32,000 nucleotides of DNA from Candidatus Omnitrophota bacterium (GTDB lineage Bacteria; Omnitrophota; Gorgyraeia; Zapsychrales; JANLHA01), in the NCBI GenBank assembly GCA_963662715.1, contig OY759724.1:900001-932000 (forward strand), in the 5' to 3' direction. The translations under genes and the position numbers were made by a program. The notes under the pieces were generated by a model, which was not told the origin of the DNA, made no database searches, and was given only the letters and a program-made list of their open reading frames with translations. This document shows positions 1-5,655 of the stretch, in pieces (the stretch's first letter is position 1; every line of letters begins with the position of its first letter).

Positions 1-818
1 TCTAACAAATAAGCATGTTTAAAATTCTCAGCCGGATAAATAAAATGCTTGTTAATATTATAGAATCCGCTTGAAATACTTAACATATCAATATCCCATT
101 CACAAATTCTTCCCAATAAATCAGTCTTATATCCCTCAGCAGCTAAATCCTCAATCCCGTCAAAACGATTCACCCGCAAATCTAAGACGATATCGGGTAC
201 TTGATCACGAATTCTATCAACAATATCATGCATAAATTTTAATCGATCATAACAATTATCATCATTTCTTGTGTTAAGAACCCTATTAATCATTTGTGCC
301 AGAAAATAACCATGTGCAGCATGGATTTGGATCACCTTGAAACCAGCTTCTCTTGCAAGAACCGCCCCAGCGACAAACAGGTCTTTAATCTCCTCGAACT
401 CTTTCTCTGAGCAAGAAGAAATTCTTCTTTGGGCCAATTTAATGAACATCTCTGGATTCTTATTCACCCATTGTTTTTGTTGCTTAATTCTTGGGTCATG
501 CAAAGACAGCTGTATTCCTGGCAACGATCCGTTCTTCTCTATCGCTTCTGCCAATTTCTTATACTGCACATCTGACGAAATTATTGCTGTATTATCATTT
601 GACCGAAATCTTGAATGAACAGCGACATTCCCAACATAACTAATTCCTAAACGTGATCCAGACCTTCGCTCATGGAAGTCAATTAACCTTTGTGTTGGTA
701 TGCCACCTCTAGCAAAACCTGTATTTATGGGTGCGAGGAATAAATGAGAAGGCACCCTTAATCTTCTTATTTCTAAGGGAGCAAACAAATATTTAATTTC
801 TGAACTAGCACAAAACAT
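1..818 (-). CDS. Old Yellow Enzyme-family NADH:flavin (FMN) oxidoreductase, N-terminal ~272 aa. The 3' end runs off the window.
   Basis: Absent from the ORF track because there is no stop in the window. My translation from the ATG at 818 reads MFCASSEIKYLFAPLEIRRLRVPSHLFLAPINTGFARGGIPTQRLIDFHERRSG...GSLPGIQLSLH...EFEEIKDLFVAGAVLAREAGFKVIQIHAAHGYFLAQMINRVLNTRND...DIVLDLRVNRFDG, open down to position 1. The LFxPLxI N-terminus, QLxH and IHAAHGY motifs are typical of OYE TIM barrels. Confidence 0.75.
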   Translation of the reverse strand, partial: MFCASSEIKYLFAPLEIRRLRVPSHLFLAPINTGFARGGIPTQRLIDFHERRSGSRLGISYVGNVAVHSRFRSNDNTAIISSDVQYKKLAEAIEKNGSLPGIQLSLHDPRIKQQKQWVNKNPEMFIKLAQRRISSCSEKEFEEIKDLFVAGAVLAREAGFKVIQIHAAHGYFLAQMINRVLNTRNDDNCYDRLKFMHDIVDRIRDQVPDIVLDLRVNRFDGIEDLAAEGYKTDLLGRICEWDIDMLSISSGFYNINKHFIYPAENFKHAYLL

Positions 819-843
819 AAGAAATCAATTTAATAGATACATA

Positions 844-1293
844 TTAGCATCCGAACTCACTCTTTAAATGCTTTAAGAACTTCTGCGTCGCAGGAAAAAC
901 CTTCAACCCCTGTGTATCATCAAGCCTCAACCATCGCCATTCAACAAGCTCAGAAGAATTAAACTCTAATGTAGTGTCCTCAGCAAGATACACCACATAG
1001 AAATAAACCTTACCCTCTCCAAAGTCATAATCCGTAGTAATCGCCAAGCTCATCTTTTGATTAGACAGGTCTAATCCGACTTCCTCTTTTACTTCTCGCA
1101 TAACCGTAGACATTGGGCTCTTATCAATACCCTTTACTCCCCCCCCAGGGGGTTGCCAATGATTTGGAAATCGTCGGGTTTTGACTAGTAGTATTTCTTT
1201 TCTACTATTTAAAATTCCTATTACAGCCACATCACGTCTGGGATTGCGCTCTAACTCCCTCGTCACATCTGAATCATTCTTATCAAAAACCAT
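844..1293 (-). CDS. Nudix hydrolase
   Basis: 149-aa ORF. It has a Nudix box PGGGVKGIDKSPMSTVMREVKEEVGL (REVKEEVGL core, one-residue insertion relative to the MutT box). Its ATG at 1293 directly abuts the stop of the upstream gene at 1294-1296. Confidence 0.85.
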   Translation of the reverse strand: MVFDKNDSDVTRELERNPRRDVAVIGILNSRKEILLVKTRRFPNHWQPPGGGVKGIDKSPMSTVMREVKEEVGLDLSNQKMSLAITTDYDFGEGKVYFYVVYLAEDTTLEFNSSELVEWRWLRLDDTQGLKVFPATQKFLKHLKSEFGC

Positions 1294-2903: not shown

Positions 2904-2905
2904 AT

Positions 2906-5311
2906 CTACCCAACAATGTCCAAGAATTCTGCAACAATCTTAAATTCACCATCCTGGCTTTCATTTAAAATAATTTTGTCAAAAGCACTATTTAATGGCT
3001 CCAATATAATCTCTTCGTGCTTCCATTGACCATCATCACCGAATACTTTTCGACTGGAGTAACGTTTAATAGTATATCTCCCGGTATCGGGATCAGCATC
3101 CTGCCGCAGTTCAACTAATACAATTTTCCCATTCCTCGATCCAACCACATTCCCTTGAAATACACAATAAGACCCATCTTTGATTCTCGGATCCATGGAC
3201 AAACCAACTGCTTTAATAACAAACATATTGCGATTAAGTCGGCGGCCTGTATCAACCTTCATCCACCCCAAGGGGGAGACTTCCTGCCCTTCACCGAATA
3301 GTCCACAGGCTGCGGCCAAGGAATAAACTGGCAAATATTCTTTAAATCGCAAAGATTCCTCAATTTGGCTCACAACTTCCACTTTATTATCCTCAATTTG
3401 TTGAGCAACTTCGGAAAACATCAAAGAATCCTCAGGCACCATGCCTTCAATTCTTGACTTAAAAAATCGTTCTGTGTCTTTATTCATGAAATAAACATAA
3501 CACCCTTTCATCCCTCTCGATAAAAGTACGCGATAAGTATTCTTTACCAGATCCACAAACTTATCTTTGCTACGCTTTACTACTTCATCCGCAGAGTTCT
3601 CCTTTATACCTATCCACGTTTGCTTATCAAAATCATAAATAACATCTTCACCAAAAATGACCCCAACATAATCAAATTCAAAACCTTGCGCCGTATACAC
3701 ACATCCGACTTGGTCAATACCGGCCGGATCATAGGCCCATAAAGAAGCCTTGGGAATACCTGGAGCCAATTTTCTGGCATCCGGCTTCGCATCCCATGGA
3801 CGCACATAATCCCCGATCACAACATCATCTATAAGCGTCCCGTCCTGCCTGGGATTAGACCATTTCCAACAAAATCCAGCAGTTACCCGTCCTGTATGCC
3901 CCTCTTGCACCTTATTACGGATGGCAGTTTCTAATGTCTCGGGGGAAGAAAAGATTTTAAAATCAAACTCCTCATGCTGATCCCAGATAACATTAGCTGT
4001 TCTTTTTATACCCAGAGTATTATTGATCCAATTTACAAAAGCTTCGGAACCATTACACCTAAATTGAGCGTCTAACTCATATTCAACAACATTCGCTTTC
4101 TTCTCAAGAGCATATTGCTTAATATATTCTGTTGAACCAACCTCATTAGGTCTTACAACCTGATTGTCATCTATAAAAAATACAGAAACTTTAGACGCAT
4201 TCATAATCTCTTCGATTTGGCTTAAAGAAGACCTATTTTCTTTTTTTGTAAATCGGCTATTGCTGGTCGTCCGGATTCTATGTGCTTCATCAGCAATCAG
4301 CACGTCAACGGTATTATTGTCTGCATTCATGTAGCTATTAAAGTATTTGAATTGGACTGCTCCCCTTGTCCCAATAATCTTCCTGAGCGTTTCTGTAAAA
4401 GCCTTAGATCCCGTTGCATAATGGGCGTTATATCCCTTTAAAAGCAAATCAGCCATTAAGTTTATTGCAATAACAGATTTACCTGTTCCAGGGCCCCCCT
4501 TAATAATGATGGCCGCTTTCTTTTTGTCATGGAAGCCTTTGCGGGCAAAAGTTAGGACCGTATCGTAAACAATCAATTGTTCATCTAAGAGGACATATTC
4601 CTTCTTGTTTTTTATGATGTTGCCAACGTGATCCATCAGCTTCTTAGAAGGACGATACCTGCTCTTTTCAACCTTATTTAAAACATCAATGCCTTGTCCA
4701 CTCTTAAGCCTCATCTTCAAATAATCGATCATTCTGTCAACATCATCTTCCGTGAACAAAGGAAATCGCTCAAGGCTTGGAGTAAATTTATCGCTAAAAA
4801 TAACATCCTGCTCATCATAAGGATAATTGTGCAAATAAGTGCAGGCATTAAGATTGACGGGATTAGGGCCATCATAAAATGCTGTGTGCGTGTCTTGGAG
4901 ATACAATTTGTATTGACCTACCTGCACGGAAGGATGCAAGACATCTCTTTTCCTTCCATTTAGCCATGTTGTGACTTCATTGTCACCATCTGAGGCTTCA
5001 CACTTTTCCCATTGCTTGAGCTCGATAATAACAGCATTGTCTTGGCGTTCCGTATCTTGGCCACAAATCATACAGTCCAGTCGTCTGGATGTCATCGGTA
5101 ATTGATATTCTAATATGACGCCATGATCTAACAATTGAGCATGTTCAAAGACTTGAGAAATTGAGCGGAGAGAATTTCGCCAGGAGTTAACCTCTCCTGG
5201 CGAAGGATTAAATCTGTAGTAGAGGAAAAAGGCTTGCTTTAATTTTTCGGCGATTTGGTTTTGGACAGTATCTTCTATAAATTGTTTGGATGTTCCTGCG
5301 TATAATCTCAT
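2906..5311 (-). CDS. DUF2075-family protein: N-terminal PD-(D/E)xK-like module, P-loop SF1-like helicase/ATPase core and C-terminal UmuD/LexA-like S24 peptidase domain
   Basis: 801 aa. The N-terminus MRLYAGTSKQFIEDTV...ILEYQLPMTSRRLDCMICG...VIIELKQW is the characteristic DUF2075 start with a D...ELK nuclease-like motif. It has Walker A IIKGGPGTGKSV, Walker B VLIADEAHRI and a C-terminal helicase motif YTAQGFEFDYVGVI. The last ~142 aa align to UmuD (details in findings). The start overlaps the mazG-like stop (ATGA). Confidence 0.85.
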   Translation of the reverse strand: MRLYAGTSKQFIEDTVQNQIAEKLKQAFFLYYRFNPSPGEVNSWRNSLRSISQVFEHAQLLDHGVILEYQLPMTSRRLDCMICGQDTERQDNAVIIELKQWEKCEASDGDNEVTTWLNGRKRDVLHPSVQVGQYKLYLQDTHTAFYDGPNPVNLNACTYLHNYPYDEQDVIFSDKFTPSLERFPLFTEDDVDRMIDYLKMRLKSGQGIDVLNKVEKSRYRPSKKLMDHVGNIIKNKKEYVLLDEQLIVYDTVLTFARKGFHDKKKAAIIIKGGPGTGKSVIAINLMADLLLKGYNAHYATGSKAFTETLRKIIGTRGAVQFKYFNSYMNADNNTVDVLIADEAHRIRTTSNSRFTKKENRSSLSQIEEIMNASKVSVFFIDDNQVVRPNEVGSTEYIKQYALEKKANVVEYELDAQFRCNGSEAFVNWINNTLGIKRTANVIWDQHEEFDFKIFSSPETLETAIRNKVQEGHTGRVTAGFCWKWSNPRQDGTLIDDVVIGDYVRPWDAKPDARKLAPGIPKASLWAYDPAGIDQVGCVYTAQGFEFDYVGVIFGEDVIYDFDKQTWIGIKENSADEVVKRSKDKFVDLVKNTYRVLLSRGMKGCYVYFMNKDTERFFKSRIEGMVPEDSLMFSEVAQQIEDNKVEVVSQIEESLRFKEYLPVYSLAAACGLFGEGQEVSPLGWMKVDTGRRLNRNMFVIKAVGLSMDPRIKDGSYCVFQGNVVGSRNGKIVLVELRQDADPDTGRYTIKRYSSRKVFGDDGQWKHEEIILEPLNSAFDKIILNESQDGEFKIVAEFLDIVG

Positions 5312-5655
5312 AACTTATCGTATTTTGTATGTTTACCTTTGGCCTTCTCAACCGGATATTTCTGAGCATTTTTCTTTAATTTAGAAAGGATCGCTTCTGA
5401 CAAATCGATGCTAAGATTATCTGCGAGTTCAAATAAATACATAGCAACATCAGCAAGCTCTTCTGAAATTTCATCTTTGCATGCTTGCCCATGGGCCTCG
5501 ACTTCGGATGGTGATTTCCATTGGAAATGCTCCAAAACCTCAGCTGCTTCCAGCATCATTGATAAAGCCATATCCTTATGATTGTGAAATTGTTTCCAAT
5601 CTCGCTCATCACGAAACTTCTTAATTTCATCGATGATCGTTTTTATTTCACTCAT
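5308..5655 (-). CDS. MazG-like (all-alpha) nucleoside triphosphate pyrophosphohydrolase
   Basis: 115 aa. IKKFRDERDWKQFHNHKDMALSMMLEAAEVLEHFQW...ISEELADVAMYLFELA shows the ExxE ... EExxD metal-binding pattern and the small size typical of MazG/DCTPP1-like enzymes. Confidence 0.85.
   Translation of the reverse strand: MSEIKTIIDEIKKFRDERDWKQFHNHKDMALSMMLEAAEVLEHFQWKSPSEVEAHGQACKDEISEELADVAMYLFELADNLSIDLSEAILSKLKKNAQKYPVEKAKGKHTKYDKL

Follow-up and report, generated by a model that had tools for sequence, protein, structure and literature searches.

Nhi, from Staphylococcus epidermidis (SERP2475), and the 'Nhi-like' proteins (Millman et al. 2022) are validated anti-phage nuclease-helicases; Nhi acts as a single protein, which is proposed to degrade phage replication intermediates. 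MazG and dUTPase domains, in turn, appear among the predicted, unvalidated defence domains of DefensePredictor (2026). We analysed here a stretch of 32,000 nucleotides (nt) from contig OY759724.1 of a Candidatus Omnitrophota bacterium, hereafter the window, in which six consecutive minus-strand genes encode a MazG-like protein, a large DUF2075 protein, an HNH protein, a Dcd/dUTPase-fold protein, a Nudix protein and an old yellow enzyme (OYE). A preliminary description of these genes had proposed that they form one composite or two adjacent anti-phage systems. Our results indicate that they are a mosaic of separate modules, which we designate A (MazG-like and DUF2075), A' (HNH) and B (Dcd-fold, Nudix and OYE, hereafter the trio), rather than one system. 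The best explanation, to which we assign a probability of roughly 0.6, is that these are independently mobile conflict modules, directed at DNA or nucleotides, that lie next to one another in an island of low GC content at a tRNA-Met gene. The gene anatomy, the conserved catalytic motifs, the modularity, the co-occurrence and the genomic context described below were established directly.

Modular structure of a tRNA-flanked island

Three lines of evidence, namely block homology, DUF2075 loci and trio loci, separate positions 2196-5655 (A and A') from positions 1-2097 (B). In blastn comparisons of window positions 1-7200 with the fetched loci, DNA homology to a conjugative element from an Omnitrophota genome bin (L001) was limited to a block that ends at the HNH stop codon on one side and 22 nt upstream of the MazG start on the other (Table 1). 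Because this block ends at the HNH stop codon, modules A and A' are set apart from module B. The element, which also carries genes for TrbI, a type IV coupling protein, an integrase, AbiEii, HipA and Fic, encodes a copy of the DUF2075 protein with 93% identity. We also scanned DUF2075 loci with the six window proteins, six of them retrieved by exact look-up (L001-L006) and 76 more representing one genome per GTDB species, and none of the 76, nor any of L001-L006, contained the Dcd, Nudix and OYE genes together. Likewise, the DUF2075, MazG and SRA-HNH genes were absent from all seven other lineages in which we found the trio. The view of two adjacent systems is therefore supported by the limits of the homologous block, by the absence of the trio from DUF2075 loci and by its recurrence in seven other lineages, and the view of one composite system is contradicted by the end of the block at the HNH stop codon and by the 0/76 DUF2075 loci with the trio.

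It is, in consequence of these three lines of evidence, highly improbable that the six genes work as a single composite defence operon, even though they share the same strand, are tightly spaced and show no terminator-like site in the 98-nt spacer between the HNH and Dcd-fold genes. The consensus scan from which this last observation comes was itself not above shuffled background, with 28 promoter-like sites against 21.8 expected and four terminator-like sites against 5.0, and for this reason we draw no operon claim from it.

The coordinates and junctions first given for the six genes were all confirmed by the open reading frame (ORF) listing and by translation of the OYE gene, which is cut by the window edge. 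The MazG-like and DUF2075 genes overlap by 4 nt (5308-5311), the DUF2075 and HNH genes are separated by 2 nt, the Dcd-fold and Nudix genes abut, and 25 nt lie between the Nudix and OYE genes. The family calls also stand, with Pfam profile matches for all the families, those of the HNH protein being weak.

Table 1. Features of the window and gene content of four contigs with relatives of the Dcd-fold protein (Dcd-TM, see text); sizes of proteins in amino acids (aa).
Feature	Position	Strand	Size	Description
OYE gene	1-818	minus	N-terminal 272 aa; 3' end beyond window	Module B gene 3; Oxidored_FMN (PF00724) 6e-20
Nudix gene	844-1293	minus	149 aa	Module B gene 2; PF00293 NUDIX 2e-18
Dcd-fold gene	1294-2097	minus	267 aa	Module B gene 1; PF22769 DCD 8.5e-13
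Spacer between modules	2098-2195	no strand	98 nt	From ORF coordinates
Mobile block	2195-5677		3.5 kb	MazG + DUF2075/S24 + SRA-HNH; 89.7% DNA identity to Omnitrophota conjugative element (L001)
HNH gene	2196-2903	minus	235 aa	Module A'; SRA-HNH protein
DUF2075 gene	2906-5311	minus	801 aa	Module A gene 2; PF09848 (DUF2075/SLFN-g3 helicase) 1e-89, PF00717 (Peptidase_S24) 9e-7
Predicted S24 self-cleavage site, Cys669-Gly670	3302-3307	minus		Family consensus Ala-Gly
MazG-like gene	5308-5655	minus	115 aa	Module A gene 1; Pfam PF12643 4e-19
tRNA-Met	6792-6868	minus		Core-genome edge of the low-GC island (ARAGORN, Rfam, GC profile, ORF list)
L109				IMG/VR; cI-like S24 repressor, Dcd-TM, divergent OYE
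L111				IMG/VR; Dam-type methylase, Dcd-TM, 117-aa MazG-like protein, OYE
L112				IMG/VR; Dcd-TM-like, Flavin_Reduct
L104				Archaeal-looking contig; DHO_dh-Fer4, Dcd-TM, NDK, canonical Dcd, MazG-like, Nudix

The preliminary description had noted that defence genes cluster in tRNA-adjacent islands, and the region is a genuine tRNA-flanked island of foreign composition. Its GC content is 0.37-0.39, versus ca. 0.48-0.52 in much of the remaining window, and it is bordered on the core-genome side by the tRNA-Met gene, which was the sole match in an Rfam scan and beyond which lie ftsB and then eno. The left border of the island falls outside the window, as does the 3' end of the OYE gene, and no contig was retrieved by exact-sequence look-up with the window's own 801-aa or Dcd-fold protein. 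Within positions 1-7200 we found neither a direct repeat of the tRNA 3' end nor an att-like repeat. Between the MazG-like gene and the tRNA there are two plus-strand ORFs (5755-6466), of 104 aa and of 124 aa, the latter with a lipoprotein-like signal (LSGC); both have a low GC content, like the island, and no Pfam match. The rest of the window contains ordinary chromosomal genes, for FtsH, an MFS transporter, TPR proteins, an SNF symporter and an H+-pyrophosphatase. A second GC dip (0.39-0.40) occurs at 26001-27500, where it overlaps the 5' portion of the gene for the SNF-family symporter (26207-28087), and a tRNA-Phe gene (24664-24739) lies ca. 1.5 kb from it.

The nuclease-helicase of module A and its neighbours

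The 801-aa protein of module A comprises an N-terminal PD-(D/E)xK nuclease domain (ca. nt 4922-5311), a DUF2075/Schlafen-group-3 superfamily 1 (SF1) helicase domain (aa 264-608; nt 3488-4522) and, after a variable linker, a C-terminal LexA/UmuD-type S24 domain (aa ca. 655-801; nt 2909-3349). The nuclease domain had been described as a PD-(D/E)xK-like N-terminus, and this is upheld by the motif E68, D79 and E97-x-K99, invariant in 117/117 full-length homologues. The same invariance, also in 117/117, was found for the Walker A (GGPGTGKS) and Walker B (DEAH) motifs of the helicase, and for each of the S24 residues Ser705 (nt 3197-3199) and Lys749 (nt 3065-3067).

Directly N-terminal to the S24 core sits the motif LPVYSL-x-AA[A/C][G/T]-x-F, where position 669 is Ala in 98 and Cys in 19 of the 117 homologues, and position 670 is Gly in 93, Thr in 21 and Ser in three. 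A profile of this C-terminal domain matches Escherichia coli LexA (7b5g, 1.9e-12) and UmuD (2e-9), and aligns AAAG on VAAG, the cleavage site of LexA, GkSM on GMSM, which holds the Ser nucleophile, and TiKkY on TVKRL, which holds the Lys general base; the LexA residues aligned to Ser705 and Lys749 are Ser119 and Lys156. Because the Ser, the Lys and the cleavage-site motif are conserved and aligned with those of LexA, the tail displays all three sequence hallmarks of a self-cleaving module, and we predict that it cleaves itself. The profile was needed to recover LexA, as single-sequence searches of PDB with the 801-aa protein or with its S24 tail gave no match. In Pfam comparisons the 801-aa protein matched no helix-turn-helix (HTH) family, and the region N-terminal to the S24 domain is occupied by the nuclease-helicase.

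Homologues of the 801-aa protein are abundant, with thousands of metagenomic sequences showing 60-70% identity over its full length, from across bacterial phyla and also from some archaeal bins. Forms of ca. 770 aa also bear the S24 domain, in a more canonical version (6e-19 to 6e-24 after Pfam re-scoring), and the cleavage region of this subtype reads PLVGSAPCGNP; short forms of 622 aa are naturally devoid of the tail. A Methanosarcinales bin (L015, JAIWAR010000002) contains a full-length, S24-bearing MazG/DUF2075 pair with 68% identity. Archaea have RadA instead of RecA and no LexA, and this copy points to a recent transfer, to mis-binning or to RecA-independent cleavage. Tandem pairs of DUF2075 genes were seen in several loci (L038:5678-7603, and also L059, L075 and L102, the Hymenobacter plasmid NZ_CP114769). 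The PADLOC candidate PDC-S41 aligns to the window protein solely at aa 534-607; two ORFs of our scan of neighbouring genes also match this candidate, up to 3e-288, one of them being probably the second DUF2075 copy of L038.

By its sequence, the 115-aa protein encoded upstream is clearly a MazG-like, all-alpha nucleoside triphosphate (NTP) pyrophosphohydrolase, homologous to mammalian dCTP pyrophosphatase 1 (DCTPP1). It reaches 69 bits with the Pfam model, against a cut-off of 27, and its aa 13-113 match DCTPP1/RS21-C6 (PDB 6sqw/2a3q) at 5.7e-20. Of 50 distinct MazG sequences that partner DUF2075 genes, at least 95% retain the metal-binding acidic residues, ExxE...ExxD. It is the homology to DCTPP1 that suggests a preference of this partner for dCTP or 5-modified dCTP.

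To count adjacencies we used 67 species-level loci with an intact DUF2075 gene and upstream sequence. In 46 of them DUF2075 has a MazG-like gene as its immediate neighbour, upstream in 43 and downstream in three, and the other 21 lack one. Once the ca. 770-aa forms are re-scored and included, the loci bearing S24 have MazG upstream in 27/29 cases; a MazG neighbour is also common next to the short 622-aa forms without S24. The short form from Bathyarchaeota has no MazG gene upstream and is followed directly by a Nudix gene (L025:9878-10288, L026, L029 and L073), in an apparent non-homologous replacement of the pyrophosphatase partner. Because Nudix replaces MazG in these archaea, the constant partner of DUF2075 would be an NTP pyrophosphatase of either fold. 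The position taken in the window by the HNH gene is occupied in other module A loci by different third genes, namely those for a DUF6904 protein and an HNH_2 protein.

The third gene of the mobile block, our module A', encodes a 235-aa protein with an SRA-like domain (aa ca. 8-151) and an HNH domain (aa ca. 175-234). The Pfam matches of the latter, to HNH_5 and HNH, are below the curated cut-offs, and those to HNH families of PHROG reach 3.6e-10; the N-terminal 170 residues match no Pfam family. In Foldseek comparisons, its AlphaFold model (predicted local distance difference test, pLDDT, of 72.6) best matched TagI, a modification-dependent restriction endonuclease (6ghs, 7e-7), with further matches to the SRA domain of SUVH5 (2.5e-5; target-normalised template-modelling score of 0.60-0.65), that of UHRF1, ScoMcrA and AspBHI. 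In the HNH domain, residues H200, D202, H203, N218, H226 and N227 (H200-F-D-H203; H226-N227) are invariant in 40 homologues. From the model, we predict a type IV enzyme that probably cuts DNA with modified cytosine.

The SRA-HNH family has more than 7900 homologues at 70-79% identity, and a 75%-identical copy stands alone, with no DUF2075 gene nearby, in candidate-phyla-radiation genomes. The gene is autonomous elsewhere and travels with module A, in this lineage, as a 3.5-kb block. We asked whether module A requires it as a third gene and rejected this, given that it adjoins DUF2075 in only 5/67 loci and that the family is autonomous. Its listing as a core member of the system has to be corrected on the same grounds, the 'HNH' protein being, by prediction, an ordinary type IV enzyme of the known SRA-HNH kind.

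The Dcd-fold, Nudix and OYE genes of module B

The first gene of module B encodes a 267-aa protein in which a Dcd/dUTPase-fold domain (aa ca. 11-165) is followed by a C-terminal hairpin of two transmembrane (TM) helices (aa ca. 194-264). In the AlphaFold model (pLDDT of 86), helices 194-230 and 234-264 coincide with the hydropathy segments 203-234 and 242-263. The nearest solved relatives, both by sequence (8e-11) and by fold (6e-14), are the archaeal dUTPases 9ln0 and 8y1w; with the NCBIfam dCTP_deam model TIGR02274 the protein scores 55.4 bits, for a cut-off of 92.8, and it matches no PADLOC family. The catalytic Glu of the deaminase is E138 in E. coli Dcd; the residue aligned to it in the window protein is Met125, and 27/27 family members have Met, Leu, Ile or Phe there. 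Among these members, DPGF, Y157-x-GQHG (containing the Y157-x-G159 lid) and WPYP are invariant, and the second Dcd/dUTPase motif reads K98-G-S-L-F-S, with an invariant Lys98 and without the Arg of SSLAR. Judging from these features, the protein is a predicted membrane-anchored, dUTPase-like protein and not a deaminase, and the label 'Dcd' should be read accordingly as one of fold.

The preliminary description had invoked dNTP (deoxynucleoside triphosphate) depletion of the dCTP-deaminase type. We examined the protein as a candidate defensive dCTP deaminase and rejected it, on account of the family-wide replacement of the catalytic Glu, of its closest relatives being dUTPases and of the lack of a match to any PADLOC model.

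The family of Dcd-fold proteins found in the trio is rare, with 29 matches among 5.8 billion clusters. A profile search over 1.84 billion representatives retrieved a wider family of 43 clusters at E <= 1e-30, hereafter Dcd-TM, with a membrane hairpin in most of the relatives inspected and the deaminase Glu in 0/43.

As for the partners, the Nudix protein has the box REVKEEVGL, the core of which, REx2EE, is intact in 7/7 trio Nudix proteins, and matches the PADLOC candidate PDC-S07 at 9e-12. The OYE, which scores 72 bits with its Pfam family against a cut-off of 27, has its nearest PDB entries among YqjM/TOYE-class ene-reductases, and the motif HAAHGY (His/His/Tyr) is present in it and in all the partner OYEs. 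A CxxCxxC...C motif, similar to the iron-sulphur (Fe-S) site of FadH/BaiCD, is found at the C-terminal end of 5/5 full-length partner OYEs (L083:5643-6788, L098:9299-10465, L101:6646-7773, L109:8037-9068 and L111:8131-9135); the window copy ends at aa 272, before that region. These five full-length proteins are without a C-terminal NAD(P)H/FAD domain.

Including the window, the trio occurs in eight lineages. In all the loci recovered the Nudix gene is directly downstream of the Dcd-fold gene, followed by OYE where the contig is long enough; the complete, ordered trio was found in six lineages (the window, L083/84/93-95, L085, L096, L098 and L101). L100 has a truncated third gene whose product is 43-51% identical to trio OYEs, and the contigs of L097 and L099 stop inside the Nudix gene or shortly past its end. 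The window OYE is 33% identical to that of L109 (1e-39), 29% to that of L111 (3e-35) and ca. 25% to the other trio OYEs, and the window Dcd and Nudix proteins are of the trio type, with identities of 44-64% and 42-51%, respectively. Since the OYE belongs to another subfamily while the Dcd and Nudix proteins are of the trio type, the sequences suggest that the flavoenzyme partner was swapped between module subtypes. The window OYE shares with those of L109 and L111 the motif SGFYNINKxxIYP.

A recurring rule among the Dcd-TM relatives is the combination of a Dcd-fold/two-TM protein with a flavoenzyme, the two being in most cases separated by an NTP pyrophosphatase, and this recurrent pairing argues for functional coupling. 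In L111 it is a MazG-like gene that takes the position of Nudix. One distant relative, P0281 (gene L104:3749-4636), is encoded in a cluster conserved over L104-L108, with neighbours for DHO_dh-Fer4, NDK, a canonical Dcd/dUTPase, dGTP_diPhyd_N (MazG-like), a metallophosphatase and a 365-aa Nudix protein. In the literature searched we found no description of a combination of Nudix, old yellow enzyme and dCTP deaminase; for module B we found no described counterpart in the libraries searched, and it may represent a new class.

A broader alignment of Dcd-TM proteins retrieved relatives from four IMG/VR viral contigs. In L109, a 215-aa S24 protein (6301-6948; PF00717 9e-22), which we read as cI/LexA-like, precedes the Dcd-TM and OYE genes. 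Prophages often carry exclusion genes at the position next to the repressor. These contigs bear on the question of whether the modules are mobile-element cargo with a role in counter-defence or addiction, in which, for example, MazG or Nudix would degrade host immune signal nucleotides and the nuclease-helicase and the SRA-HNH enzyme would exclude rivals. We hold this to be quite unlikely. Module A does lie within the conjugative element of L001, and relatives of module B are found right after the cI/LexA-like repressor in one viral contig and beside a Dam-type methylase in another; however, genes adjacent to a prophage repressor are often host-protective exclusion genes, which is itself defence. 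Similarly, PHROG families exist for MazG-like, dCTP-deaminase-like, Nudix and OYE-like proteins, but the 801-aa protein had no IMG/VR match in a pattern scan and only four weak partial matches among 50,697 phage records, the trio-type Dcd subfamily had no match in IMG/VR viral contigs, and many loci have no recognisable mobile-element backbone.

Genomic context, possible roles and known systems

The neighbours of the trio in other genomes include HicA and RadC; ParE, a reverse transcriptase and EVE-NmeDI_C; Dcm, HD-CE, ORC-Cdc6-like and ArdC; and also a pPIWI-associated nuclease, a SIR2_2 protein and an HNH_3-AP2 protein, a neighbourhood typical of defence islands and mobile elements. In L098 (3278-7076) and L099 (1-3754) the trio adjoins a conserved set of genes for a C5 cytosine methylase, HD-CE and an ORC-Cdc6-like ATPase, with an ArdC-like gene on the opposite side; this set looks like a separate conflict system. 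Module A was found, besides the conjugative element with AbiEii, HipA and Fic, next to AAA_21 and RloB, and close to NERD, HepT/nucleotidyltransferase and AbiEi. PADLOC and Pfam analyses of 150 ORFs near module A identified AbiEii, PDC-M05A, PDC-S09, BrxH/DrmD-type helicases, NYN and nucleotidyltransferases. In qualitative terms, toxin-antitoxin, restriction and defence-type genes were often found next to both modules elsewhere, and the defence role proposed for both of them is plausible.

Several observations weigh against reading these genes as conflict modules. The scan of neighbours has no matched control and is used only qualitatively, and some module A loci lie in metabolic or housekeeping surroundings, among sugar transport and glycosidase genes in L004 and near dnaX/recR, FeoB and MFS genes elsewhere. 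The P0281 cluster resembles nucleotide metabolism and not a defence island, which suggests that some of the Dcd-TM proteins, at least, work in metabolism, and MazG, Nudix and S24 are no less characteristic of DNA-damage responses of the housekeeping type. With regard to the individual proteins, the PADLOC models for AbiO (PDLC02350) and Nhi (PDLC02372) match only aa 236-471 of the 801-aa protein (profile positions 174-377; E ca. 1e-15, 53-55 bits), so that it is not a recognised member of Nhi/AbiO. The S24-bearing copy from L015 weakens the idea of a RecA trigger, although contamination of that archaeal bin is possible, and the hydrolytic activity of the Dcd-fold protein is uncertain because the Arg of its second motif is not conserved. 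Finally, the Nudix protein has its nearest solved relatives, with weak matches (3e-7), among diphosphoinositol-polyphosphate and diadenosine tetraphosphate (Ap4A) hydrolases, and not among dNTPases. The earlier statement that three of the families act on NTPs consequently holds only at the family level, given these relatives of the Nudix protein and a Dcd fold that lacks the deaminase Glu.

Both modules could be housekeeping or stress genes, with A acting as an SOS-type nuclease-helicase for repair or replication restart, under the control of a LexA-like self-cleavage and accompanied by a sanitiser of the dNTP pool, and B taking part in pyrimidine-nucleotide sanitation or catabolism at the membrane, with its flavin reductase acting on the 5,6 double bond. 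LexA/UmuD-type S24 domains belong classically to the SOS response, MazG/DCTPP1 and Nudix proteins are classic house-cleaning enzymes, and the sugar-utilisation genes of L004, the dnaX/recR, FeoB and MFS genes of other loci and the company of P0281 (NDK, canonical Dcd/dUTPase, dGTP_diPhyd_N, Nudix and a DHO_dh-Fer4 flavoenzyme) all favour such roles. We nonetheless regard them as unlikely: both modules are patchy across phyla and, in the window, share a low-GC island at a tRNA gene, module A being also carried by a conjugative element. Copies of module A from Omnitrophota, Bacillota, Planctomycetia and archaeal bins share 70% identity, which fits horizontal transfer better than vertical housekeeping; the recurrence of toxin-antitoxin, restriction and defence neighbours, and the extreme rarity of the trio-type Dcd family, also argue against housekeeping.

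We consequently favour the mosaic of mobile conflict modules. Genomic context is what makes an anti-phage role probable for all of them, and in the following scheme we infer this function, a RecA trigger, all the substrates and a reductive chemistry. As a Nhi-like effector, the large protein of module A would unwind and degrade phage replication intermediates. RecA filaments on single-stranded DNA (ssDNA), or some other cue of infection or damage, would stimulate cleavage of its S24 tail at Cys669-Gly670, by analogy with LexA and UmuD, and the freed nuclease-helicase of ca. 669 aa, resembling the tail-less 622-aa forms, might in this way be licensed or relocalised. The DCTPP1-like MazG protein could hydrolyse dCTP or 5-modified dCTP-type nucleotides, so that phage DNA synthesis would be starved or 'de-modified'. 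Module A', as a hitch-hiker with A, would add a type IV SRA-HNH enzyme that cuts modified-cytosine DNA.

In module B, a membrane-anchored, dUTPase-like trimer may bind or hydrolyse a pyrimidine nucleotide, alongside a Nudix pyrophosphatase and a flavin mononucleotide (FMN)-dependent, probably Fe-S, ene-reductase. Most likely, the module would act at the membrane during infection, by removing a pyrimidine (d)NTP pool or by inactivating it chemically; the DHO_dh-type partner in L104 and a faint Dus match in L101 suggest that the 5,6 double bond would be reduced.

Module A brings together three ideas that have so far been studied apart: a Nhi/Schlafen-type helicase-nuclease, a dCTP-pyrophosphatase partner and a proteolytic switch of the LexA/UmuD type. 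If the S24 tail were a RecA-sensed licence, it would explain how a nuclease distinguishes infection from normal replication and would tie the SOS co-protease mechanism to immunity; likewise, module B would, if our scheme is true, extend the nucleotide-pool defences by a flavin-dependent chemistry and by a dUTPase fold bound to the membrane. In a bolder version, which we put forward as a tentative and rather doubtful one, module B would be an unrecognised class of conflict system, built around a catalytically altered dUTPase/Dcd-fold protein anchored in the membrane and an FMN (probably Fe-S) reductase coupled to it, usually with a Nudix or MazG-like pyrophosphatase in between, and acting by reductive destruction of pyrimidine (d)NTPs or deoxynucleoside monophosphates (dNMPs) at the 5,6 double bond or as a nucleotide-binding trimer that gates a six-helix membrane effector, and module A would be the first immune nuclease-helicase to be licensed by LexA-type self-cleavage.

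Compared with known systems, module A could resemble the defences based on dNTP depletion (dCTP deaminases and dGTPases) in that its MazG protein might also remove a dNTP needed by phage replication. It differs from them in that the window MazG is the partner of a nuclease-helicase, never found alone here, and no PADLOC model, including those for dNTP depletion, matches it. The module A' protein has the N-terminal SRA-like fold and the C-terminal HNH domain of the type IV enzymes TagI and ScoMcrA, and, like TagI-type enzymes, its gene has no methyltransferase neighbour in the window and stands alone in other genomes. However, its sequence identity to TagI, the best structural match, is ca. 17%, its cleavage and target base being predictions, and the protein falls well short of the length of ScoMcrA and lacks a sulphur-binding domain.

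With the archaeal dUTPases (Pyrococcus P45, 9ln0; Thermococcus pacificus, 8y1w) and the bifunctional Dcd-dUTPases, the Dcd-fold protein of module B shares the jelly-roll fold, DPGF and the C-terminal Y-x-G, and it has Met at the position of the deaminase Glu as 8y1w does. In contrast to the archaeal dUTPases, the window protein has ca. 100 additional residues that end in the membrane hairpin and lacks the SSLAR Arg, and its gene in module B is always followed by the Nudix and OYE genes.

The preliminary description found no named system to which the genes could be matched, and PADLOC indeed assigns no complete known system to them; yet the DUF2075 protein does have, in its first ca. 620 residues, the architecture of Nhi, Nhi-like and AbiO, with the same N-terminal PD-(D/E)xK domain ahead of a DUF2075 SF1 helicase whose Walker A and B motifs are intact. 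Its sequence suggests, then, a protein that shares the Nhi architecture without counting as a member of the family. The S24 tail and the conserved MazG partner do not appear in the available parts of the Nhi description, and the DUF2075 literature searched contains no description of DUF2075 with a MazG-like protein, nor of an S24 domain on a defence helicase. Nhi is a single-gene system; the DUF2075 gene of module A has an adjoining MazG gene in 46/67 loci, and in 27/29 of those bearing S24, and 21 loci lack it. The tail has the same Ser-Lys dyad as the S24 domains of LexA, UmuD and lambda cI, with Cys-Gly at the predicted cleavage site, as in UmuD, instead of Ala-Gly. Unlike in LexA and cI, there is no HTH in the window protein and the S24 domain is placed at the C-terminus of a nuclease-helicase of ca. 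650 aa, so that the predicted cleavage would cut the tail off an enzyme and would not serve to switch off a repressor.

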